From Somniosus microcephalus (lineage: Eukaryota): a DNA stretch of 64,000 nt. The stretch lies in the NCBI GenBank assembly GCA_052327205.1, contig CM126203.1:94302001-94366000 (forward strand), in the 5' to 3' direction. A model generated the notes under the pieces. That model saw only the letters and a program-made list of their open reading frames with translations. It ran no database searches and was not told the DNA's origin. Made by a program: the position numbers and the translations under genes. Positions 15,730 to 58,562 of this stretch are shown here, one piece after another (position 1 is the stretch's first letter; each line of letters opens with the position of its first letter).

Positions 15730-16009
15730 TGTGGTAAACCACTGTTATAGTTATCACTGTATATTGTTCTCACTGTTCTCACTGTCACATCACTACACGA
15801 GGTCGCCTCTTGTCGCACTGTTATACCTGGGCTGACCACCTCCGACTCCGCCCATTACCTGCCCAGGTATAAAGGTAGCTGACTGGCTAGTATTCCTCCC
15901 TGTTGGATCGGATCACCCACGAGGGTGGGCTCTGTTATTTAGCCAATAAAAACCTTCAGTTACGTTCTTAACTCGTCGCCTTTTATTGGACTAATTGATA
16001 GGCATATCA
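15730..16009 (+). repeat. Gypsy-A 5' LTR
   Basis: TATAAA near 15868, AATAAA at 15945-15950; direct repeat of 20062-20341. Confidence 0.95.
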
Positions 16010-16032
16010 ATTTTATTGACTAAATTTTAAAG

Positions 16033-19000
16033 ATGTCTGATAATGAACAGCAACAGCAAGGAGCTCACCCAGCAGCACAGCAACAGCAGCCTCCAGACAA
16101 CGGGCCACACCAGCCGGCTTGGCTGCAAGCCTTGAAACCACCATACCTGGATCTAAACCCACAGGCACCAAACTCAGCCAACGACTTCAAACACTGGCTG
16201 GACTGCTTCGAATCGTACCTGGAGGAAGCCGTCGTCCCTCAGAGATCCAAACTAAGAGTCCTGAAAGCCCAAGCGAGCCCGAGAGTATATACACTCATCC
16301 AGGACATGACTACGTACGACGACGCCATCAACCTACTGAAACAGCAGTACCGGAGCCCGGTAAACTACATGTACACTAGGCATCTCTTAAGATCTCGCCA
16401 GCAACAGCCAGGAGAATCGATAGCTGAATTTTCACGAGCGCTGAGACAACTCGGCAGGAACTGTGACTTTAAAGCGGTGACGGCTACTGCGAACATGGAA
16501 GACAATGTCCGCGACGCCTTGGTGAGAGGCCTACGTTCCGACTACACACGGCAAAGACTGCTTGAAGCTAAGGACATAGACCTGGACAAGGCCGAAGCCC
16601 TCGCCCTCACCCTAGAGGCCACCCAGCAAGACCAGGAAGCGTTTGCCAGGTACTATTCGCGACCCTGGGACTCGGGCCCGACCCCCACCCCACCACCCTT
16701 CACAGCGCTGCCCCCGGGACCTACCTCAGCGTCTGCATCACGGATCCGACCGGGCCCGCTAGCCCCGGTACCGGCCCCGACATCAGGCAACCCCGATCGG
16801 GCCGCTGGCTGCTTCTTTTGCGGCCAGGAGAAGCATCCGAGGTCGCGCTGCCCAGCCAAAAACTCGACCTGCAAAACCTGCCTCAAGAAAGGCCACTTCT
16901 CCAAGGCCTGCAGAAGCAAATCCTCAGAAGCCAGCAGTGCCTCATGCGAACCCTGGGGGCGGCCATCTTTGTGCGGGGCAGCCGAAGCCTGCAGAGCCTC
17001 ATGGGAAAACCAGGGGCGGCCATCTTTGTGCGGGGCAGCCGAAGCCTGCAGAGCCTCATGGGAAAACCAGGGGCGGCCATCTTTGTGCGGGGCAGCCGAA
17101 GCCTGCAGAGCCTCATGGGAACAGCAGGGGCGGCCATCTTTGTGCGGGGCAAACGATTTAAACAGAGCCTCATGTGAACTACGGGGGCCGCCATCTTCGC
17201 CGCCATCTTGTCATGACAACGACGCGCTCATCTACACCCTAGCTTCCGTGACCCTGGATCAAGCCCGCCCGCACCACCTGGCCAGCTCAATGATGGACAT
17301 CAAAGTCAACGGCCACGCCACGACCTGCCTGTTCGACAGCGGAAGCACGGAGAGCTTCATCCACCCAGACACGGTGAGCCACTACTCCCTCCCCGTCCTG
17401 CCAACGCGCAGCCGCATCTCGATGGCATCGAGGTCGCACGCCACAGACATCAGCGGCTACTGTGTCGTGACATTGTCGGTTAAAGGGACAGAGTATAAAA
17501 ATTTTAAACTCCTCGTACTCCCCCAGCTGTGCGCTGCCGTCATACTAGGGCTGGACTTCCAATCCCACCTCCAAAGTGTAACCCTAGCATACGGTGGACC
17601 CCTCCCCCCACTCACAGTCGACAACCAGCGAAAGTTAAACCGCCCACCGCGTAACACCTGCAGCCTATCCACCCTCAAGGTACCGCCACCTTCCCTGTTC
17701 GCTAACCTCACCCCCGACTGCAAACCTGTCGCTACTAAGAGCAGGCGGTACAGCGCTGGGGACAGAGCCTTCATTAGCTCTGAGGTGCAGCGACTCCTGA
17801 AAGAGGGCATTATTGAGGGGAGCAGCAGCCCCTGGCGTGCCCAGGTGGTGGTAGTCAAGACCGGCGACAAAAATCGCCTGGTTATCGACTACAGCCAGAC
17901 CATAAACAGATACACCCAGCTGGACGCATACCCCCCTCCCCCGCATATCGGACATGGTCAATGAGATTGCACAATACCGCGTATTCTCGACCATCGACCT
18001 CAAGTCGGCCTACCACCAACTCCCCATCAGCCCGGAGGACAGCCAGTACACCGCCTTCGAGGCGAATGGCCGCCTCTACCAATTCCTTAGGGTCCCCTTT
18101 GGTGTCACCAACGGGGTCTCGGTTTTCCAACGGGAGATGGACCGGATGGTTGACCAGAACGGACTACAGGCCACTTTCCCCTATCTCGATAACGTCACCA
18201 TCTGCGGCCGCAACCGGCAGGACCATGACGTGAATCTGGAGAAATTCCTCCGTACGGCCCAACGGCTGAACCTCACCTACAATAAGGAGAAATGCGTGTT
18301 TAACACAGCGCGCCTTGCCATCCTTGGCTGTGTAGTAGAGAACGGAGTCATCGGCCCCGACCCCGAAAGAATGCGCCCCCTCATGGAGCTACCCCTCCCC
18401 CACTGTCCAAAAGCACTTAGGAGAACCCTGGGGCTTTTCGCCTACTATGCCCAATGGGTACCCAATTATGCGGACAAAGCCAGACCCCTCCTGAAAACCA
18501 CATCCTTCCCCCTCACGGAAGAGGCGTGCGCGGCCTTCTCCCTCATTAAGGGAGACATAGCCAAGGCCACAATGCACGCAGTGGATGAGTCAATCCCCTT
18601 CCAAGTGGAGAGCGATGCATCCGACTTCGCCCTAGCCGCTACCCTTAACCAGGAGGGTAGGCCGGTAGCCTTCTTCTCAAGGACCCTACAGGGCCCCGAG
18701 ACCCGACACTCGTCGGTCGAGAAGGAAGCCCAGGCAATTGTGGAGGCAGTACGGCGCTGGAGGCACTACTTGGCAGGCAAACGATTTACCCTCCTCACCG
18801 ACCAACGCTCGGTTGCCTTCATGTTTAATAACAAGCTGAGGGGCAAGATCAAGAACGACAAAATCTTGAGGTGGAGAATCGAGCTTTCCACCTATGATTA
18901 TGAGATCTTGTACCGGCCCGGTAAACTGAACGACCCCCCTGATGCTCTTTCACGCATTACATGCGCCAGCGCGCAAAGTGATAGACTTCAGACCCTCCAC

Positions 19001-20019
19001 AATGACCTCTGCCACCCCGGAGTCACCAGACTCTACCATTTCATTAAGGCCCGCAACCTGCCATACTCCATCGAGGAGGTCAGGACCATGACCAGGAACT
19101 GCCAGATCTGTGCTGAGTGCAAACCGCACTTCTATAAGCCGGACAGAGCAAGCCTGATCAAGGCCACCCGCCCCTTCGAGCGTCTGAGCATCGACTTCCA
19201 AGGGGCCCCTACCGTCATCCGACCGTAATGTGTACTTCCTCAACATCGTTGATGAGTACTCCCGTTTCCCCTTTGCCTTCCCCTGCCCAGACATGACCAG
19301 TAACACGGTCATTAAATGCCTGAACAAACTCTTCGCCTTGTTCGGGTTCCCGAACTATATACATAGTGACCGGGGCGCCTCCTTCATGAGCGAGGAACTC
19401 CGTCAGTTCCTATTGGAGAGGGGTATTGCAGCAAGCAGGACCACCAGCTACAACCCCCGAGGGAACGGCCAGGTGGAAAGAGAGAACGCGACGGTATGGA
19501 AGGCCACCCTCTTTAGCCTTAAAGTCTAAGGGCCTCCCAACCTCCCGCTGGCAAGAGGTCCTCCCGATTGCGCTGCACTCCATCCGGTCACTACTTTGCA
19601 CTGCCATTAACACCACCCCCCATGCTCGAATGTTTGTCTTCCCCAGGAAGTCGACTACGGGAACCACCCTACCAACCTGGCTGACCTCTCCGGGACCCGT
19701 CTTGCTGCGAAAGCACGTGAGGGCCCATAAAACGGACCCCCTGGTCGAGAAGGTGAACCTCCTGCACGCCAACCCCCAGTACGCCTATGTGGCTTAACCA
19801 GACGGACGGGAGGACACTGTCTCCTTACAAGACCTCGCACCCTCACCCCCCCCTCCCAACCCCCCGAGTCCAGCCGAGGTAGACAGCATGCCGGAACCCC
19901 ACGAGCCTTTGCCGACTACGCAGACACCAGCTTTAACACCGGATAATGTAACACCGCCGCTGCGACGATCGGAGAGGCTAACGAAGCCTCCGGACAGACT
20001 GACATACCAGAGCTGGTAA
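16033..20019 (+). pseudogene. Gypsy-A gag-pol (zinc knuckles, protease, RT, RNase H, integrase), disrupted
   Basis: CFFCGQEKHPRSRC and CKTCLKKGHFSKAC knuckles, FDSGS protease, YLDN RT, ESDASD RNase H, HHCC and DDE integrase; frameshifts near 17935, 19200 and 19510 and a TAA at 19795. Confidence 0.93.
16937..17210 (+). repeat. 57-bp in-frame tandem repeat (about 4.5 units) in the gag-protease linker
   Basis: Unit encodes GRPSLCGAAEACRASWENQ. Confidence 0.9.
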
Positions 20020-20061
20020 TACACTTCACCCCGCCGGACTCTAATCTAAACAAGGGGTGAA

Positions 20062-20341
20062 TGTGGTAAACCACTGTTATAGTTATCACTGTATATTGTT
20101 CTCACTGTTCTCACTGTCACATCACTACACGAGGTCGCCTCTTGTCGCACTGTTATACCTGGGCTGACCACCTCCGACTCCGCCCATTACCTGCCCAGGT
20201 ATAAAGGTAGCTGACTGGCTAGTATTCCTTCCTGTTGGATCGGATCACCCACGAGGGTGGGCTCTGTTATTTAGCCAATAAAAACCTTCAGTTACGTTCT
20301 TAACTCGTCGCCTTTTATTGGACTAATTGATAGGCATATCA
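20062..20341 (+). repeat. Gypsy-A 3' LTR
   Basis: Direct repeat of 15730-16009, preceded by the PPT. Confidence 0.95.
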
Positions 20342-23699: not shown

Positions 23700-26600
23700 T
23701 GATGCGCTATCAATAACTCAAAAGACTGAGATTAAGCGAGTAATTAACAGGCTTTTATTAACAAGAGAATGAAGGTGTGCCTCGAGTGGTCGACCGGTCC
23801 AGAATACAGAGGGACTGTGGAGCAGTCACCTTTATACCTGGACTCGTGGGAGGAGTCAGCCGAGACATGTACAGGCATGTACACAGTGGAATACAAACAG
23901 TGGTTTAGCACATTCACCCCTTGTTTAAACATGAGTCCGGCGGGGTGAAGTGTATTAAAAGTTAGTGTATTGGAGTCTCTCCGGAGGTCTTGTCTGCCGC
24001 TGTGATCGACGTGGCGACGGCAGGGGTAGTGAAGCTTCCGGCATCGAGTCCCGCGTAGGCTGGGGCGCTGGTGTGTAGTCCTCGTAGGTGTCGAGCGGGT
24101 CGCAGGGCCCAGGCCCGCCGTCTGCTGGGGCTGGATATCGGGTCGTCGGGGGGGGTGGTAGTGGGTAGTGGGTTACTGCGGCCCCCGAGGGTGCGAGGTC
24201 TCGTATGGAGACTGTGTCCTCCCGCCCGTCCGGGTACGCAATGTAAGCATACTGGGGGTTGGCGTGGAGGAGGTCGACCCTTTCGACCAGGGGGTCCGTT
24301 TTATGGGTCCTCACGTGTCTTCTCAGTAGGACCGGCCCTGGGGACGTCAGCCATGGCGGTAGCGATGTCCCCGATGTGGACTTCCTTGGGAAGACAAACA
24401 TTTTCTCATGAGGGGTGGCGTTAGTGGCAGTGCAGAGCAGTGACCGAATAGAGTGGAGCGCATCGGGGAGCACATCCTGCCAGCGGGAGGTCGGAAGGCC
24501 CCTAGACTTTAAGGCTAGCAGGGCGGCCTTCCAAACTGTCGCATTCTCTCTTTCCACCTGTCCGTTCCCCCGGGGGTTGTAACTGGTGGTCCTGCTTGTG
24601 GCAATACCCCTAGCGAGCAGGTACTGATGGAGTTCGTCGCTCATAAACGATGAGCCCCGGTCGCTATGGATATAGCTGGGGAAACCGAACAGGGTGAAGA
24701 GGTCGTTCAGACATTTAATGACCGTGGCACTGGTCATGTCCGGGCAGGGGATGGCGAACGGGAAACGGGAGTACTCATCAATAATGTTGAGGAAGTACAC
24801 ATTGCGGTCGGAGGAGGGGAGAGGCCCTTTAAAATCAACGCTCAGGCGCTCGAAGGGGCGAGTGGCTTTTATCAGGTGAGCCCTGTCTGGTCTATAAAAG
24901 TGCAGTTTGCACTCAGCGCAGACTTGGCAGTTCCTGGTCATGGTCCTGACCTCCTCAATGGAGTAAGGCAGGTTGCGGGCCTTGATGAGGTGGAAGAACC
25001 TGGTGACCCCCGGGTGGCAGAGGTCATTGTGGAGGGCCCGCAGTCTATCGATCTGCGCGCTGGTGCAGGTGTCACGCGATAGAGCATCCGGGGGTTCATT
25101 GAGCTTCCCGGGCCGGTACAAGATCTCGTAATTGTAGGTGGAAAGTTCGATTCTCCACCTCAGGATCTTGTCGTTTTTGATTTTGCCCCTCTGCTTGTTG
25201 TTAAACATAAACGCAACTGAACGCTGGTCAGTGAGCAGGGTAAATCGTTTTCCGGCCAGGTAGTGCCTCCAATGACGCACAGCCTCCACAATAGCCTGGG
25301 CCTCCTTCTCAACGGCGGAGTGTCTGGTCTCCGGGCCCTGGAGGGTTCATGAAAAGAAGGCCACGGGTCTCCCCGCCTGATTGAGGGTAGCGGCCAGGGC
25401 AAAGTCGGACGCGTCGCTTTCCACCTGGAAGGGGATGGATTCGTCCACTGCGTGCATGGTGGCTTTGGCAATGTCTTCCTTGATACGGTGGAAGGCTAAG
25501 CGGGCCTCTGCCGTCACGGGAAAAGAGGTGGACTTGATCAGCGGACGGGCCTTGTCCGCATAGTAGGGGACCCACTGGGCGTAATAAGAGAAAAACCCTA
25601 GGCACCTCTTCAGGGCCTTGAGGCAGTGGGGCAGTGGGAGTTCCATAAGGGGACGCATCCGGTCGGGGTCGGGATCGATGACTCTGTGTTCCACAACACA
25701 GCCAAGGATGGCGAGGCGGGTTGTGCGGAATATGCACTTCCCCTTGTTATACGTCAGGTTGAGGAGTTTGGCAGTGCAGAGGAATTTTTTGAGGTTTGCG
25801 TCATGGTCCTGCAAGTCATGGCCGCAGATGGTCACATTGTCCAGATATGGGAAGGTGGATTGCAACGCATTTTGATCGACCATCCGGTCCATCTCCCTTT
25901 GGAAGACGGAGACCCCGTTGGTGACGCCAAAGGGAACCCTAAGGAAGTGATAGAGGCGGCCGTTTGCCTCAAAGGCAGTATACTGGCGGTCCTCAGGGCG
26001 GATAGGGAGCTTGGTGGTATGCTGATTTCAGGTCAATGGTCGAGAAGACGCGGTACTGCGCGATCTCGTTGATCATATCAGCTATACGGGGGAGTGGGTA
26101 AGCGTCCAGCAGGGTGTAGCGATTTATTGTCTGGCTGTAGTCGACGACCAGGCGCTGCTTCTCGCCAGTCTTAACGACCACAACCTGGGCTCGCCAGGGG
26201 CTGGTGCTGCCCTCAATAATCCCCTCCTTCAGGAGCCACTCCACTTTGGTTTTAATGAAAACCCTGTCCCCGGCACTGTATCGCCTGCTCTTTGTGGCGA
26301 TGGGCTTACAGTCGGGGGTGAGGTTAGCAAACAGTGGGGGGGGGGGTGACTCTGAGTGTGGAGAGGTTGCACCTGGTGCGCGGCGGGCAATTTGGAAGCT
26401 GCTGGCTGCGGACTGTGAGTGGGGGGAGGGGTCCACCGTACGCCATCGCAACACTTTTAAGGTGGCACTGAAAATCTAACCCCAGTAGAACGGCAGCGCA
26501 GAGGTGGGGCAGGACCAGAAGTTTAAAATTATCGTACACAGTCCCGTCTACTACGAGTGTCACCACGCAGTAGCCGCCAATGTCCGCCGACTGGGACTCA

Positions 26601-28035
26601 GAGGCCATAGAAATCCGCTGGTGCGCAGGCAGGACTGGGAGAGAGCAACGCCGCACCGTGTCGGGGTGGATGAAGCTCTCCGTGCTCCCAGAGTCAAAAA
26701 GGCAGATTGTTTCGTGACCATTTACCTTAATGTCCATTGTGGACCAGGCCAGCTGGTGCGGTCTCGCTTGGTCCAGCGTAACGGAGGCCAGCGTAGGGGT
26801 CGGTGTGTCGCTGCGGGTATCAGATGAGGCGGTGTTGGGGGCCTGCTGCATCCCGGCTGTCGTCCAAGATGGCGGCGTCCATGATCCCCATGTGGCTGGA
26901 GGCGTCCAAAATGGCTGCTGTTCCGGTGGTTCGCACATGGCTGGGGAGGCCCAAGATGGCGGCCCGCACGGCCCACACGCGGCGCTGCTGGGGTTCGGGG
27001 TGGCTTTGGCTCTGCAGACGCTGGCGTAGTGTCCTTTCTTCCCGCAGCCCGAGCAGGTCACATTTTTCACCGGGCAGCACGCTCTGGGGTGTTTGGCCTG
27101 GCCACAGAAGTAGCATTTCTGGCCTTGGGGCACTGCTGTCTGGCCTTGGGACATTGCTGCGGTAGTTGGGCCATTGCTGGGATGTGACTGGGGTGGCACG
27201 GCGCTATGAGACGGTCCTACCGTGTCCCAGGCTGTCGTTCCCCACGGCGTCCACGGTGCAGAGGAGTAGGCGCCCATGCCCAGGTAGGCTGCGTCCAATG
27301 ATAGTGCGAGTTCAGAGGCCTTGTTGAGATCGAGGTCACTCTGCTCCAACAGTCGCTGTCGGGTGTAATTGGACCTGTGGCCCGCTACAAAAGCGTCCCG
27401 GATAAGTTCCTCTGTGTACACGGCGGCCTTTACATCCTTACAACCACAGGCCCGGCCAAGCACAGACAGTGCCTGAAGGTATTCCTCGGTCGATTCCCCA
27501 GGTTGTTGTTTACGACTCCCCAGGAGGTGCCTAGCGTACACTTCGTTCACTGGGCACGTGTACTGGTCCTTGAGGAGCTTGATAGCATCCACGTACGAGG
27601 TCGCATCCTGGATGACCGAGTACACTCGGTGGTTCACTTTGGAGGTCAGGATGTCCAGTTTGTCCTCGTCCGATTTGACCGTTTCAGCAGAGGCGATCAG
27701 AAATTTTTCAAAACACCTAAGCCAGTGAGTAAACTTGGTGGATGAGTCCGCCTCCCGATGATCTAAGTCCAGGCATGCTGGTGTGAGGATCTTCTCCATT
27801 ATAAAAATCTTGTTAATAAAATTGATGCGCTATCAATAACTCAAAAGACTGAGATTAAGCGAGTAATTAACAGGCTTTTATTAACAAGAGAATGAAGGTG
27901 TGCCTCGAGTGGTCGACCGGTCCAGAATACAGAGGGACTGTGGAGCAGTCACCTTTATACCTGGGCTCGTGGGAGGAGTCAGCCGAGACATGTACAGGCA
28001 TGTACACAGTGGAATACAAACAGTGGTTTACCACA
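23700..28035 (-). mobile_element. Gypsy-B: full-length Ty3/Gypsy element related to Gypsy-A
   Basis: 213-bp LTRs at 27823-28035 (5') and 23700-23912 (3'), 2 mismatches seen; TSD GGGGC at 23695-23699 and 28036-28040; PPT at 23913-23922. Confidence 0.97.
23955..27799 (-). pseudogene. Gypsy-B gag-pol, disrupted
   Basis: ORFs 26324-27799 (gag, knuckles, FDSGS), 25993-26454, 25347-25892 (YLDN) and 23955-25289 (integrase); frameshifts at the G-run near 26340 and near 26005, TGA at 25347-25349. Confidence 0.93.
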
Positions 28036-28639
28036 GGGGCATAGTCTAAGGATAAAGGGTTGGCCATTTATGACTGGGATGAGGAGAAATTTCTTCACTC
28101 AGAGTGTTGTGAATCTTTGCATTTCTCTACCCCAGAGGACTGTGGATGCTCAGTCGTTAAGTATATTCAAGGCTGAGATCAATAGATTTTTGGACTCTAA
28201 AGGGAATCAAGGGATATGGAGATCGGGCTGAAGAGTGGAGTTGAGGACGAAGATCAGCCATGATCTTATTGAATGGCGGAGCAGGCTTGAGGGGCCATAT
28301 GGCCTACTCCTGCTCCTATTTTATGTCTCTTATGTAAGTAAGTAATAGTCACCTTGTCAATTTGATTAATATTTAATCATCTTCTCTTAAGACTGTAGAG
28401 TTTAAGGTTCTCTCATTTTCCTCATTGCTCCTGCTTTGCACTTGCATTCTTGTTATGAAAAATAATTCAATTATTTTCATCCAGTCTTCAAGAATTTCCA
28501 CTACTTTTATCTTTTAAAGATCAATGTTTTCCCCTAAATATTCTTTTGCTAATATAATATTGAACTAGTTTTATTTTGCTTAGCATCCTTTGCTATGTTC
28601 CTTTCTAGTGCCTTTCTACAACCCCAATAACTTTTTTCA

Positions 28640-35232: not shown

Positions 35233-36902
35233 CTGTGTTTTCTTTACTTCTAAGGGGGTTGCCTGCCTTTGTTAATGAGAAAATACCCAATTAGTTAGGT
35301 TAATGTACTAAATGTAAATGGATAGTCCTTTGCTTTGCAAGTACTCACAGTATGTTACACTGTAAATTGCTCCTAGCCATTTAATTCAAAACCAAGAATT
35401 GTTTCTATGAATTTCATCATGTTGTAGCATCTGACTCAAACATGGTTTCTTCATGGTTGCATGTAAAAACTGGCTAACTAGTAAGCATGAAAATGGCATT
35501 GGACTGTCCAAAACTTACAAAATGTTATTCCATTTTGGTTTTGTTTGGTAATATATTTAACGTTCATCTCTTCAAAGAAATTAAACTGATAAAAGCAGGG
35601 TGTATCGTTGTTCTTGCGGAATTCTGGATCTCCATGCATATGGCTCATATATTTTACATGAAACTCCCAACCTAGGGGATACAGCTGGAGACAACATTCT
35701 CCAAAGAGCTTGAGAAAACGGGACTGTTAAATGTCACTCTGACAGTTGTCAGGGCTTTATCTGTTTTATTCCAAGTGGATATTTTAATTTCAAGAGTCTC
35801 TTCCAACTGCTGGAGAAAGGAAGGTGACAGCTCAGATGAACTGTATGTTATAATCTTAGTTGTCTTGTATTCCATTATTAGTCTAATTTGCTGTGTTTCA
35901 TAAATTTCCTTGATTTTGTAAATAAATCTGATTGTTTTAGCCTGTCAAATCTCTCGTCTATGTGCAATATTTTCTATCTGTCTCAAGCGAATGTGGCATT
36001 GTAGTGCAGGGCTACTGTTAATTAAGTAGCAGTACTTCAACTGAGATAATTGTTAATTCCTGGGTCTACACACACACGCACATCACAAAATTATGCCAAT
36101 TTCAGATAGGAAATGACACAGTAACATTTTTGTCAGGCTGTTAAATGAGAGAATTATGCAAAAAACAGCCAGATTTATAATGGTAGCCAAGATTCTATCC
36201 AGAGTGACCAAGGTGAGGAAGTGGCAGAACTTGCCACTCAAATCTTGCTTCAAAGAAGCACATCTCTTGATCAGTCATGGAACAGCATCAGCAGCATTGT
36301 GGAGGCTTCTGTGACCCAGACTATTCAGTTCTCATATGGTGATGGGTACTGATGAATACAGGCTAACTGAGAATTGTGTTTGAACAATCAATAAACATAT
36401 TGGGGGAGAAATTCAGTTGTTAGCGCCAGCCGTTAGCGCCTTAAGAGGGCGATAAGTGGGGCGCGAAGCGGCTAGCGCCCGGGCGCGGCGAGACCTGCGC
36501 CTCTCGCGACATTGAGCGGACATTTAGTGGCGGTGCAAAACCGCAACGCCCGCTCAGCTGCGCACGCAGATCCTGACGTCATTTCATGGTGCAACGCCCT
36601 TTGTGGCGCCCCCCTCCTTTCCGCCTGGCGCTCCCAGCGACTGGTTGACTGGAACGGTTCCCAGTCGCTGTGGGGCTGAGGGGGCGCTATTTAATGGGGG
36701 CTCTTCCTGGCTTCTTAGTGGTAGCCATTTTGGACCACTCCTTCTGTGAGAGAGAGAGAGATTTGCAGAGAGACAAAGGGAGAGGGCTTTCTGCATTGAC
36801 TCAGCACTCGCACATGTACTTCTGGCTTCAGCCCAGAACTTTGCAGTTGGATTGATTTTTCAGTGCCATAGCCTTGATTGGCCACATATTATGGGGGCTG
36901 CA

Positions 36903-38015
36903 ATGGGTGGAAACGTTGGGTTTCTCCATTTCATTGAGAGGGCTCAGAGACGCCGAGAGAGAGTGCCAATCATGGCCAGACGGAGGAGGGCCAACAGGCG
37001 TCGGCACAGGAGACCTTACCCTGCCAGGGTATTCCGCCAGCAGTTCTCCTGCCTCAACATGTCTGAGGAGCAGTATATTCAGAGGCTTCGATTCAGCAGG
37101 GAGGTGGTCACTGAGCTCTGCCACCTGCTTCAGCCAGATCTGCAGCCTCAGCTGAGGAACAGGACGTCTCTGTCAGTGGCAGTGAAGGTGACAGTGGCTC
37201 TCAACTTCTATGCCACCGGCTCCTTCCAATCCACTACTGGGGACATTGCCAATGTCTCCCAGTTTGCGGTGCATTGCTGCATCCGCCAAGTCACGAATGC
37301 CCTCTTCAAAAGGAGACGTCAGTACATTTCCTTCCCCATGACCCTGGACAAGCAGCAAGAGCGCGCAATGGGATTTGCAAGAATAGCGGGCTTCCCTATG
37401 GTCCAGGGCGCCATTGACTGCACGCATGTGGCTTTGCGGGCGCCTCAAGAGAATGCCGAGGATTACCGCAACCGGAAGGGGTTCCATTCGTTGAATGTGC
37501 AGTTGGTGTGTGACCACAGACAGCTGATACTAGCTGTCAATGCCCGCTTTCCAGGCAGCAGCCACGACGCCTTCATCCTGCACCAGACTTCTGTGGCAGA
37601 CCTTTTCGAAGCCCCGGCTCACCCAGGAGGGTGGCTTCTCGGGGACAAGGGCTATTCTCTGTGCACCTGGCTGATGACCCTGCTCCATGCGCCCAGTACC
37701 CCTGCTGAAGAACGATACAATGACAGCCATTAAGCGACCAGGAACATCATTGAGCACACAATCTGCGTGCTAAAGCAACGGTTCCGCTGTCTGGACCATT
37801 CCGGGGGAGCCCTTCAGTACTCGCCTGAGCGAGTCTCCCATTTCGTTGTAGTGTGCTGCATGCTGCACAACCTGGCTATCCTCAGGACTCAGCCACTGCC
37901 AGCAGACATTGGAGGACCAGCAGAGGAGGCGGAGGAGGAGGAGGAGCACCAAGACGGGAGGGAGGCACAAAGTGCAAGGGCCGTCCGTCAGCGGCTTATT
38001 GCAAGTTGGTTCTAG
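36903..38015 (+). pseudogene. Harbinger (HARBI1-like) DDE transposase with one in-frame stop
   Basis: GAIDCTHV, NRKGFHSLNVQLVCD, PGSSHDAFIL, LLGDKGY and LKQRFRCLD..CCMLHN; TAA at 37731-37733 is followed by in-frame ATRNIIEHTI. Start codon uncertain. Confidence 0.92.
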
Positions 38016-50647: not shown

Positions 50648-53600
50648 TGTGGCGGAGCCACTAAGGGACTCCAATCAATTGTATATAATTCCCTTTAATA
50701 ATATGTTGGCTACAGCCTGAGTCTGTATCTTTGTTTTCACTGTTTACAAGTACAGAGCGCGATCACTTTAATAGCGCGGGTAAACGCGATGACGTCACGC
50801 CGTTCATCACGTGATCCCCCACCGGTGGGAAAAACGTGATGACGTCATGACGTCAGCCACGGGACCGCCCTTGCAGTCCTCGTGGAGCCTCCGAACTGAC
50901 TAGATCTATATTCGATGTTCTCCTGTAGTTATCTATTAAACTCTGTTACTTTTCATTAAACCTCATTTATTTGATCGCCTGAGTGGACCTCAGTCTTTTG
51001 GATAGGAACTAGACATTTCTACATTCCCCGACTTTTGCGAACGGTTTTCGCAGAAGTTACTGAACATGGAATCGAACGCCGTTGCTTTGAAGCTACCACA
51101 GTTCTGGGAGCAACAGCCAGCTGTGTGGTTCATCCAGGCTGAAGCCCAGTTCGTAATCAGGAACATCATTGCGGATCAGACCCGTTACTATCACGTGGTC
51201 TCCGCCCTCGACAGCGCCACAGCCTCGCGGATCGTCAGCCTGCTTGGTAATCCACCAGAAGATCACAAATATGATACGATAAAGGCACGGTTGTTACAGG
51301 TCTTCGGGCTCACGAAGTCGGAGCACGCCCGCCGGCTGCTCAATATGCCCGGCCTCGGGGACTCCAAGCCGTCCGAGCTCATGAGCCAAATGCTCACGCT
51401 CCTGGGCTCCGAACCGGAATGTTTCCTCTTCAGGGAGCTATTCCTCAGCCATCTACTGGAGCAAGTTCAAGCTGCCCTAGCCAGGTCGGAAGTCACCGAC
51501 TGCGCAGAGCTGGCTGCCGATGCGGACAAGATCTTCGCGGTGACACAGCAGTACTGCGCTGCCACAAGGCGCCCATCCCCCACAGACGCCACTCCAGCCC
51601 CTCAACCTGCGGGGTTGTGCTTCTACCACGCCCGTTTTGGTGCGAAAGCAAGATGCTGCCACCCTCCCTGCAGCTTTTCACTCAAAAAAACAAAAATACA
51701 GCAGCCACCCTGTCGAAAGAGGACCGGTTATAGCGAGCGCCCCACGGCTGCGATGGCAATTGGTAATTTGGGAAAACTCCTCTGCATCAACGACTCCCTA
51801 TCTGGTCGACGTTTCCTTTGCGACACCGGGGCGCAGTGTAGCATCCTACCCGCGTCAAATCTTGATCTACAAGTTGGGGGGCACGGCCCCTCCCTCCAGG
51901 CGGCTAATGGCGGGGCCATTCGGACCTTCGGAAGCCGTCGGGTCCAGGTGTGCTTCGGCGGCCAGCGGTTTTACTGGGATTTCATCACGGCCAAAGTCTC
52001 TCAAGCCATCCTCGGGGCAGATTTTTTGTGCGCCAACGGCCTCCTGGTGGATGTACAGCACCGCCGGTTGATCAATGTGGCCACTTTTCACTCCATCCCG
52101 TGCTACCGCGGTAACACCGTGGCTCGCACTGTCTCCTGCGCGTCCCCACCTCTGGATGACTTCACTCGCCTCCTCGGAGATTTTCCAGACCTGACCAAAC
52201 CCACTTTCTCTTCCACGGCCACGAAACATGGTGTCAAACATCACATCACCACTACTGGCTCCCCGGTCTACGCATGGGCCCGGCGCCTCGAACCTGGCAA
52301 GCTCGCGGCTGCGAAAGCAGAGTTCGACACGATGGAGCGGCTAGGGATTATTCGCTGGTCGAATAGTCCCTGGTCTTCGCCTCTCCACATTGTTCCGAAA
52401 CCTGGCGACGGATGGCGGCCTTGCGGCGACTACCGACGCCTGAACAACGCCACTACTCCTGATCGGTACCCGATCCCTCATATTCAGGATTTCTCTGCAC
52501 ATTTGGCGGGAAATACCATTTTTTCAAAAGTCGACCTTGTCCGTGGCTACCACCAAGTCCCCGTACACCTGCAAGACGTCCCGAAAACTGCAGTCATCAC
52601 CCCATTCGGCCTGTTTGAATTTCGGCGGATGCCGTTTGGATTGAAGAACGCTGCACAGGCTTTCCAGCACTTGATGGACTCCGTGCTTCGGGACCTCAAG
52701 TTTCTATTCATCTACCTCGACGACATCCTCATCGCTAGCCCTAATAAAGAGGAGCACATCTGCCATTTGCGCACCCTCTTTAGATGCTTCAGTCAACACG
52801 GCTTGATCATCAACCCGGCCAAGTGCCAGTTCGGCCTGCAGCAGATTGATTTTTTAGGCCATCGCATCACATCAGACGGCGCAATTCCCCTGCAAACGAA
52901 GGTGGAGGCAGTTACTTCATTCCCGCGCCCGCAGTCCGTCAAGGCCCTGCAGGAGTTCCTCGGGATGGTAAATTTTTATCACCGGTTCGTCCCTAATGCA
53001 GCTCTGCTCATGCAGCCCCTGTATGAGGCCCTCAAGGGCAAGTCCAGCAAGGATCCGATCAGCTGGACAGTCGAAATGGACCGGGCGTTCGTCGACACAA
53101 AAGACGCTTTAGCCAACACAACCATGCTGGCACACCCGCTGCCAGGTGCCACCATTGCCCTTACCACTGACGCGTCAGACTACGCCATTGGCGCAGTGCA
53201 GGAACAGTGGGTGCATGGGACGTGGCAACCGCTGGCGTTTTTCAGCCATCAACTACGGCGAAACGAATGAAAGTACAGCACGTTCGACCGGGAGTTGCTG
53301 GCCCTTTTTCTGGCCATCCGCCATTTCCGGTTCTTGCTAGAGGGACGTCCGTTCACAGCTTTTGTGGACCATAAGCCACTAACGTTCACTATGGCCAAGA
53401 CCGCCGAACCGTGGTCAGCTTGGCAACGTCAGTTGACGTTTATCTCAGAATTCACCACTGACATTCAGCATGTGTCCGGTAAGGACAACCTGGTGGCAGA
53501 TTGCCTCTCCCGCGCGACTATTCATGCAGTCCAGCTCGGCATCGACTCTGCCCTCATGGCTGCGGATCAAGCCTTGGATCTGGAGGGCCAATCTTACAGA

Positions 53601-55268
53601 ACCAACCCCTCTAGCCTCCAAGCGGCTGACGTCAAATTCCATTGCGGGCACGACGCTACGCTGCGACGTCTCCACAGGAGATCCTCGCCCTATCGTCCCG
53701 GTCGCCTGGCGCCGAAAAGTTTTTGACGCCATTCACGGGTTGTCGCACCCTGGCATGAAGGCCTCGCAACGGTTAATGTCATCCAAATTCGTGTGGTGGG
53801 GCATGCACATGGATGTTCGCGACTGGGCCAACACCTGCGTGGTCTGCCAAAAGGCCAAGGTGCAGCGTCACGTCAAGGCTCCATTGGCCACTTTTGCCGT
53901 TCCGGAACGTAGGTTTGATCATGTGCATGTGGACCTGGTGGGGCCACTTCCGCCTTCGCACAGGTTTACTCATCTTCTTACAATGGTGGACCGCACCACT
54001 CGATGGCCGGAGGCGGTTCCTCTGTCTTCCACCACTTCCGCAGACGTCGCCAGGGCATTCATCTCCTCTTGGGTCGCCCGTTTCGGGGTACCGGCGGACA
54101 TCTCGTCCGATCGTGGACCACAGTTTTCTTCTGAGCTCTGGAACGCCGTGGCTCAGGGGCTCGGTGTCAAGCTACATCGCACCACTGCCTACCATCCACA
54201 GGCGAACGGCCTGCGCGAACGATTCCACAGGTCGCTCAAAGCCGCACTGCAAGCCAGCCTTCAAGGCGCGGGCTGGGTGGACAGGCTTCCATGGGTCCTT
54301 ATGGGTCTTCGTACGGCACCTAAAGAAGATCTTCAATTGTCCTCGGCGGAGCTCGTATATGGCCAGCCGCTATGCGTACCAGGGGATTTCCTTCCGTCTC
54401 CAACAGAGCCATGGTCCACGTCCCAGCAGCTCATCAGCCACCAGGAGGCAGCCAGAAGTTTCGCTCCAGTGCCTACGTCGCATCACGGCTTGCAGAGCTC
54501 CCACGTCCCAGCTGAGCTGAAGAACGGCGACTATGTGTTTATCTGCCATGACGCTCATCGGGACCCGCTGAAACCCCCTTACACTGGTCCTTTCCGTGTG
54601 ATAGAGCTGGGAGACAAATCTTTTTCGGTTGATGTTGGAGGTAAACCGGACCACATTTCGGTTGACCGGTTGAAGCCGGCTCACTTGGACCTTGACCGCC
54701 CAGTCGAGACCGCACAACCGCCGAAATGTGGCCGACCGCCCACAGTCGCCGTGCCAGATCAAACGCAACCGCCCGCCAGCTCACCCGCCATCCATCAGCT
54801 TCCACTTCAAGGCTACAGAAGTCGATCTGATAGGCTTGTCAGGCCTCCTCGCCATTTTACTTTTGCTATTAAAGACAATTCTGGGGGGGCGCATGTGGCG
54901 GAGCCACTAAGGGACTCCAATCAATTGTATATAATTCCCTTTAATAATATGTTGGCTACAGCCTGAGTCTGTATCTTTGTTTTCACTGTTTACATGTACA
55001 GAGCGCGATCACTTTAATAGCGCGGGTAAACATGATGACGTCACGCCGTTCATCACGTGATCCCCACCGGTGGGAAAAACGTGATGACATGATGACGTCA
55101 GCCACGGGACCGCCCTTGCAGTCCTCGTGGAGCCTCCGAACTGACTAGATCTATATTCGATGTTCTCCTGTAGTTATCTATTAAACTCTGTTACTTTTCA
55201 TTAAACCTCGTTTATTTGATCGCCTGAGTGGACCTCAGTCTTTTGGATAGGAACTAGACATTCCTACA
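50648..55268 (+). mobile_element. Gypsy-C: full-length CsRn1/Kabuki-like Gypsy element
   Basis: LTRs 50648-51023 and 54894-55268 (about 8 differences seen); 4-bp TSD CCAC at 50644-50647 and 55269-55272; G-rich PPT before the 3' LTR. Confidence 0.96.
51066..54893 (+). pseudogene. Gypsy-C gag-pol, disrupted
   Basis: [18 protein letters not shown] gag, CFYHARFG..C knuckle, CDTGA protease, YLDD RT, TDASD RNase H, integrase with GPY/F-like YTGPF; TGA at 53268-53270 and a frameshift near 53640. Confidence 0.93.
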
Positions 55269-58069: not shown

Positions 58070-58562
58070 TCAGTAGTCTCTGCTGCCCCCTCTCGGCCCT
58101 CTGCTGCCCCCCTCACCGCCCTCTGCTGCCCCCCTCATTGCCCTCTGCAGATCCCCCTTTCCCCCCCTCTTCGCCCTCTGCCCCCCGTCTCCGCCCTCTG
58201 CCCCTCCTCTCCGCCCTCTGCCCCCCCCTCCTGCCCCACCTCTCCGCCCCCCTCTCCACCCCCCTCCTGCCCTCTGCCCCCCTCCGCCCTCTGCTGCCCT
58301 CCTCTCCGCCCTCTGGCCCCCTCTCCGCCCTCTGCTGCCCTCCTCTCCGCCCTCTGCCCCCCTCTCCGCCCTCTGCCGCCCTCTCCGCCCTCTGCTGCCC
58401 TCCTTCCGCCCTCTGCCCCCTCTGCTGCCCTCCTCTCCACCCTCTGCCCCCTCTCCTGCCCCCCTCTGCTGCCCCCCTCTCTGCCCTCTGCCCCCCCTCT
58501 CCGCCCTCTGCCCCCCCTTCTCCGCCCTCTGCACTCCTCTCACTGCCCTCTGCCCCCACCTC
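58070..58562. repeat. C/T-rich degenerate mini/microsatellite
   Basis: About 490 nt built from ccctctg, ctccgccctctg and ctgc units. Confidence 0.9.

Follow-up and report, generated by a model that had tools for sequence, protein, structure and literature searches.

LTR retrotransposons start minus-strand DNA synthesis just behind their 5' LTR, and priming from an element's own RNA has been proven in fission yeast. The 64,000-nucleotide stretch of Somniosus microcephalus DNA analyzed here (the window) raises the question of what primes a Gypsy element whose leader, at exactly this place, is complementary to its own LTR. The initial annotation had described this complementarity as a pairing of the leader with a poly(A) signal. 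We found that the pairing is real and strongly covarying, and that it is best explained as a variant of the known self-priming mechanism.

The element in question, Gypsy-B (28035-23700, minus strand; 4336 bp), is a Ty3/Gypsy LTR retrotransposon, with TG...CA LTRs, a 5-bp target duplication (GCCCC), a polypurine tract (23913..23926, minus strand) and the domain order gag-PR-RT-RH-IN; among solved structures, Ty3 is the closest to its RT. The 5' LTR (27823..28035) and the 3' LTR (23700..23912), both on the minus strand, are 213 bp long and 99% identical, with two mismatches between them. The gag-protease reading frame (26324..27799, minus strand) encodes a zinc knuckle and an aspartyl protease and ends early in this copy. 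Its ATG at 27799 is separated from the LTR by 23 nt, as previously noted. The region encoding RT, RNase H and integrase (23955..26475, minus strand) is split into several frames, carries the RT motif YLDN and lacks a chromodomain.

The primer-binding site (PBS) of Gypsy-B (27808..27821, minus strand) lies one base, an A at 27822, past the CA of the LTR and starts with TTT rather than TGG. Read as 27821-27808, it is a perfect 14/14 reverse complement of an arm inside the LTR at 27889-27876 (27876..27889, minus strand), the predicted self-primer, which contains AATAAA at 27882-27877. The coordinates given in the initial annotation were thus correct, and the match is beyond what shuffled sequence yields: when the LTR was dinucleotide-shuffled 2000 times, its best match to the first 24 nt of the leader never exceeded 11, and with the AATAAAA core held fixed, the distal 7 bases match by chance at p about 1.6e-4. 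In the fold predictions, none of 200 shuffles scored as well as the 5' region (z -3.1); the 3' LTR region, without the leader, had a z of +0.6. The arm and its AATAAA are repeated in the 3' LTR with no PBS behind them, and at that LTR the poly(A) signal is expected to remain unpaired. Directly after the arm, starting with RCCT, the fold places an inner R-U5 stem (27827..27875, minus strand) stacked on the primer duplex; the boundary between arm and stem (27876/27875, minus strand) is the putative cut site. The previously reported ATTGAT-agcgc-ATCAAT stem is present at 27837-27821 (27821..27837, minus strand), where, as a U5-IR-like alternative, it crosses the LTR end and would compete with the inner stem.

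A second member of the lineage, Gypsy-A (15730-20341, plus strand; 5' LTR 15730-16009), has its arm at 15937..15951 and its PBS at 16011..16025, both on the plus strand, with 14 of 15 positions paired. The exception is an A-C mismatch at position 9, found in both of its LTRs, and the Gypsy-A leader is the perfect partner of the LTR of a sister subfamily (e.g., locus L023). The proposal that the distal half of each leader fits its own LTR therefore stands without exception for Gypsy-B but not for Gypsy-A. In their U5, the A-type LTRs also have a second stretch resembling TTTTATTGG (about 15975-15990), able to pair with the arm within the LTR; in the predicted fold of Gypsy-A, this stretch outcompetes the mismatched PBS. 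Four 57-nt tandem repeats are found in the Gypsy-A gag (16927-17211, plus strand).

The lineage is very abundant in the 6.4-Gb host genome, where the pattern of its LTR start matched 63,201 times, compared with 12,695 for the reversed control, leaving about 50,000 LTR starts above control. We took 29 candidates, dropped two that had no leader (L016 and L039) and added the two window copies, giving a host set of 29 elements. A target duplication was found in 23/31 host candidates, and the median difference between paired LTRs was 0.8%. The host leaders fall into 11 types, which pair over a mean of 13.0 bp with their own LTR vs 8.3 bp across types. The leader pattern of the group to which Gypsy-B belongs matched 7169 times in the host genome and its control 0 times. 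From the first 100 matches listed, 90 copies were taken, and two with a mutated core were left out; of the remaining 88, 79 are perfectly paired, over four letter types, three carry the leader of a sister type, and six have single uncompensated changes.

Relatives bear source names from sharks, rays, cnidarians, an echinoderm, molluscs, a shrimp, insects, nematodes, a fluke and Seison. At the DNA level, the comparison outside the host covered metagenome contigs (80 loci) and contigs of bacterial genome bins (9 loci), many of these loci being too short or decayed for a 5' LTR. Loci L120-L128 are animal Gypsy elements in bacterial genome-bin contigs, some with both LTRs, and are most likely host contamination of the bins. 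A scan of IMG/VR found no relatives. A blind inverted-repeat scan of 53 loci and 14 whole-locus scans (permuted contigs) turned up this arrangement again and again, and 25 non-host elements showing it were added.

Over the resulting 35 distinct leaders, the duplex with the own LTR averaged 14.2 bp and reached at least 11 bp in 33, whereas the same leaders paired with the LTRs of other families over a mean of 5.5 bp, with at least 11 bp in only 13 of 1190 combinations. The own LTR was the strictly best partner for 30/35 leaders, and in 20,000 permutations the observed own-LTR mean was never reached. Complementarity beyond the core, which the initial annotation had suggested seeking across subfamilies, thus holds at a level far from chance. 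At positions 1-13, 437 of 442 cells in 34 families (L074 left out) were Watson-Crick pairs and none was G-U, the latter partly by construction because the 25 non-host elements had been selected by a perfect inverted repeat; pairing at positions 14, 15 and 16 was seen in 25, 20 and 13 of the 34 families. We therefore also considered an unbiased set, in which loci were identified solely from their LTR pairs (26 candidates, four dropped as permuted contigs or a microsatellite). With the best register near the LTR end taken for each locus, at least 12 of the 13 positions are paired in 21/22 loci, representing about 10 families, and the 286 cells comprise 277 Watson-Crick, 5 G-U and 4 mismatched pairs. 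Pairing is kept in relatives down to 46% RT-RH identity to Gypsy-B. In one family, L072, the core itself is altered on both sides, with AGA in the arm and TCT in the PBS, and its GAAGA has a compensated partner.

These observations bear on whether an external primer, such as a half-tRNA or another small RNA, occupies the site, its match to the LTR being coincidental. Half-tRNA priming is known in some copia lineages, according to the accessible part of PMC6317226, and the site does follow a loose common pattern, with a G at arm position 10 in 31/34 families. However, 35 different sequences each track their own LTR, so that, judging from the sequences, no fixed external primer would account for the site; the cross-family test largely refutes this explanation. 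In addition, no Rfam match was found in 27600-28100, and the TGG start needed for a CCA end is absent. We therefore regard an external primer as exceedingly improbable. No tRNA-type PBS was seen among 54 elements, whose sites start with TTT or TCT, and ARAGORN detected no tRNA in the 64-kb window.

The layout around the LTR end is as constrained as the pairing is variable. The register, CA followed by one nucleotide and then TTT or TCT, was found in 53/54 elements, the exception being a mutated copy; the arm ends in AAA in 33/34 families (AGA in L072), and RCCT follows it directly. The AAA ends of the arms and the TTT starts of the PBSs, seen in 53/54 elements, would also suit priming by the 3' end of an RNA, either a poly(A) tail after trimming or 3' R from the same or a co-packaged RNA, annealing to the PBS with no cut in the 5' leader, and the 3' LTR does carry the same arm. 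Against this, L072 pairs AGA with TCT, which indicates a genomic partner rather than a poly(A) tail, and poly(A)-tail priming was rejected on this ground. Poly(A) cleavage falls 10-30 nt downstream of AATAAA, so that with the hexamer inside the arm, the RNA would not end where the arm does. Priming from the RNA 3' end thus appears very unlikely.

The arm overlaps a poly(A) hexamer in many but not all elements. AATAAA is present in 29/29 host arms, and AATAAA or ATTAAA in 14/25 non-host arms; most of the other non-host arms differ from the hexamer by one letter, and two of these 11 have a separate hexamer downstream. Together with the presence of the arm's partner behind the 5' LTR only, this overlap would fit a duplex that merely hides the poly(A) signal of the 5' LTR against premature termination, with priming taking another route. 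There is a precedent in HIV-1, for which a stem-loop has been proposed to conceal the 5' signal (PMC12789967, accessible part): there too, the poly(A) signal in R lies in a stem at the RNA 5' end, but HIV-1 combines a local hairpin with a tRNA primer, whereas the partner in this lineage is the PBS itself, found only at the 5' LTR. Yet AATAAA and ATTAAA are both missing from 11/25 non-host arms, L072 retains pairing through its compensated GAAGA, and hiding a signal requires neither the one-base register nor near-strict Watson-Crick pairing, and it would leave the element without a primer site. A further counterexample comes from the host sushi-type chromoviruses described below, which share the geometry with no poly(A) signal in the arm. 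Occlusion as the sole function is accordingly improbable. Masking of the 5' poly(A) signal, in those elements whose arm holds the hexamer, is likely a by-product and at most a second job, because 11/25 non-host arms lack it. The pairing that the initial annotation had attributed to the poly(A) signal is thus better described as mainly a primer-site pairing with a fixed register at the LTR end.

As controls, we analyzed other elements of the host and the window. Three host sushi-type chromoviruses (L159-L161), with a chromodomain-like C-terminus as read by eye, share the one-base register; their duplex is exact, 11 bp long, and lies 30 nt downstream of a TATA-like box. They belong to a young family with long open pol frames. 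Elements with a tRNA-type leader (GGGGGCTCG-type; L162 and L163) and a third Gypsy element of the window, element C, reached only 5 bp at best; four more control loci gave no usable LTR end. Element C (50648-55268, plus strand) belongs to another lineage and has a DUF7041 gag, a YLDD RT and 376-bp LTRs. The leader of element C, which shows no pairing with the LTR of that element, has no TGG start and resembles a shortened tRNA-type site, reminiscent of the CsRN1 clade. Another long-branch host retroelement lineage (L164 and L167) has an integrase of retrovirus-like appearance, and a search of the stretches taken for these two loci revealed no LTR pair. The window also contains a DDE_Tnp_4 (Harbinger-type) transposase frame (36750-37733, plus strand) and a C-rich tandem array (58080-58540, near 58.1-58.5 kb).

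The PBS cannot accept a CCA end and follows its own LTR, from which we infer self-priming; the fixed register and the host sushi-type chromovirus of the same geometry point to self-priming of the Tf1 kind. By analogy with Tf1, we consider it very probable that this Gypsy lineage primes reverse transcription with its own RNA rather than a tRNA, with a cut at AAA|RCC. The RNA would fold back so that the arm pairs with the PBS one base past the CA of the LTR. A cut at the arm's 3' end, probably made by the RNase H that the element encodes, would then release a terminus from which extension could run into U5 and on into the rest of R. Where the arm holds AATAAA or ATTAAA, the duplex, which can arise only at the 5' LTR, would likely conceal the poly(A) signal of that LTR. 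The Tf1 primer reportedly remains on the cDNA. If the same holds in this lineage, plus-strand synthesis would copy the retained primer back into the PBS, keeping the two strands strictly complementary.

Such re-copying in each cycle may drive part of the covariation. G-U pairs are rare, as expected if the PBS is rewritten from the primer every cycle: they make up 5/286 cells in the unbiased duplex set, compared with 93/657 in the neighboring inner stems as predicted by an energy model. Strict selection against wobble pairs could also keep G-U pairs few. The initial annotation had concluded that selection acts on base pairing and not on a fixed external primer. Its second half agrees with an internal, covarying pairing in 35 leaders, but selection on each pair is not needed to explain a covariation in which G-U is so rare.

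In Tf1, the RNA's first 11 bases prime after being cut by RNase H (PMC7175516, accessible part), and the self-priming region adopts a three-duplex structure (PMC10085805, accessible part). We compared the lineage with each of the further duplexes of this pretzel. The hairpin after the arm is supported: starting at the first base past the arm, it averages 4.2 bp, vs 2.5 bp in shuffles (p 5e-4; 23 non-host elements). The LTR-end stem ATTGAT/ATCAAT occurs in 29/29 host elements with nearly invariant arms, and the corresponding hairpin in non-host families was not significant (p 0.067); the stem, which the initial annotation had listed beside the leader-LTR pairing, is thus present but offers little evidence of covariation. 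We rejected, as a conserved feature, a pairing of the gag start with LTR sequence upstream of the arm: although attractive in B-type copies, this outer duplex was equally stable in own and cross combinations (-7.8 vs -7.7 kcal/mol; p 0.31).

The position of the primer within the RNA may differ from that in Tf1. A TATAAA box lies 82-85 nt before the 3' end of the arm in 26/29 host elements and in 0/25 non-host elements; in Gypsy-B, this putative promoter (27954..27959, minus strand) is 84 nt upstream. The host box is ~70 nt upstream of the start of the arm, vs 30 nt in the host sushi control, so that transcription would be expected to begin about 40 nt before the arm. The primer in the host is therefore perhaps not at the cap but ~40 nt inside the RNA, a departure from the Tf1 rule, in which the 5' end of the RNA serves as primer. 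At positions 11-10, a conserved A/T-G preceded by pyrimidines resembles an initiator motif, and such a motif would place the primer at the cap; against this, pairing extends 2-4 bases past it.

RNA reads were available from two raw runs (X7 and X8) of organism A, which is close to the host and maybe not the species of the window. They revealed sense transcription of the lineage, with a depth of up to about 1000 in gag. The best-matching copy, L037 (26/27 variant sites), has its arm at 161-174. Sense depth on L037 in X7 was 50-68 over positions 31-135, 106 at 136-150 and 132-149 at 151-195, placing the rise at 136-165, upstream of the arm; in X8 it came later, so the two runs disagree. No poly(A) ends were found among the loose read ends listed for X7 and X8. 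In X7 only, 13 antisense molecules stop at L037:157, a site 4 nt upstream from where the arm starts. Both runs have high antisense depth over U3, and a divergent promoter in the LTR is one possible source of these signals.

Phylogenetically, the lineage forms an RT clade of its own on a long branch (38 rows; SH-aLRT 100; stem of 1.1 changes per site in a quick tree). Quick trees that included one sushi lineage along with four other outgroups did not reject a sister position to sushi (p-AU 0.32), and the RT-RH of the lineage is 35% identical to that of the host sushi element. None of the 12 full-length relatives has a chromodomain. The RT motif, counted in the window at 23955-26475 (minus strand) and 17906-19228 (plus strand) and in loci L011-L126, is YxDN in 30/38 clade members and YxDD in six, with two unread, and many of these copies are young. 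For the YLDN motif in retrotransposons, we found nothing related in the open literature.

Like Tf1 and Tf2 of Schizosaccharomyces pombe, Tj1 and the Tf1/sushi group, the lineage has no tRNA PBS, and its PBS is complementary to its own LTR. It further shares with Tf1/sushi the duplex one base past CA, as in the host sushi element, and the flanking R-U5 stems. It differs in the absence of a chromodomain, its separate RT clade, its mostly YxDN motif and its length of about 4.3 kb, and also in the duplex itself, which is 11 bp in Tf1/sushi and 11-19 bp across the lineage (mostly 13-15), with an arm that overlaps the poly(A) signal. The lineage thus appears to work like Tf1 yet does not bear the chromodomain by which Tf1/sushi members are recognized. 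A more far-reaching reading is that a chromodomain-free, pan-animal Gypsy lineage evolved self-priming independently, with a poly(A)-signal primer cut inside the leader, a duplex that also blocks polyadenylation and a PBS rewritten each cycle; we offer it tentatively and consider it rather doubtful as a whole.

Cigr-1 elements are about 4.2 kb long with short LTRs. As a lead from comparison by description only, the lineage may correspond to Cigr-1 or to a MolGy clade; Cigr-1 and 16 MolGy clades are listed as animal Gypsy clades in the accessible part of PMC6238403, which gives no mechanism of priming for them. The searched supplements of published work contained none of the lineage's motifs. 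Self-priming has been published for Tf1/sushi, Tcn1 and TAR (PMC6317226, PMC5341516, PMC5443660 and PMC6934838, accessible parts). For the plant clades Tcn1 (Gypsy) and TAR (copia; Houba and Osr-1), it was likewise predicted from PBS-LTR complementarity alone, and TAR shows the trait outside chromoviruses; these are other lineages and hosts than an animal Gypsy lineage, and the accessible part of the source does not mention an overlap with the poly(A) signal for them (PMC6317226). We found no description of self-priming in the present lineage in the open literature, subscription journals and Repbase notes lying outside the search, and the accessible parts of PMC3601003, PMC13524379 and PMC8220671 contain nothing on it.

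In the open literature, as far as the accessible texts show, self-priming in animals is tied to the chromoviruses of the Tf1/sushi group. If our interpretation is true, a second, chromodomain-free animal lineage does the same, and independence from tRNA would be far commoner in animals. This touches on a question raised in PMC3601003 (accessible part), whether priming by a hairpin is an ancestral trait or one that evolved repeatedly. Annotation filters that require a tRNA PBS miss such elements. The abundance of the lineage in the host and its transcription in a close organism mean that the primer can be searched for directly in tissue RNA. If primed by their own RNA, such elements would presumably also escape silencing by 3' tRNA fragments.
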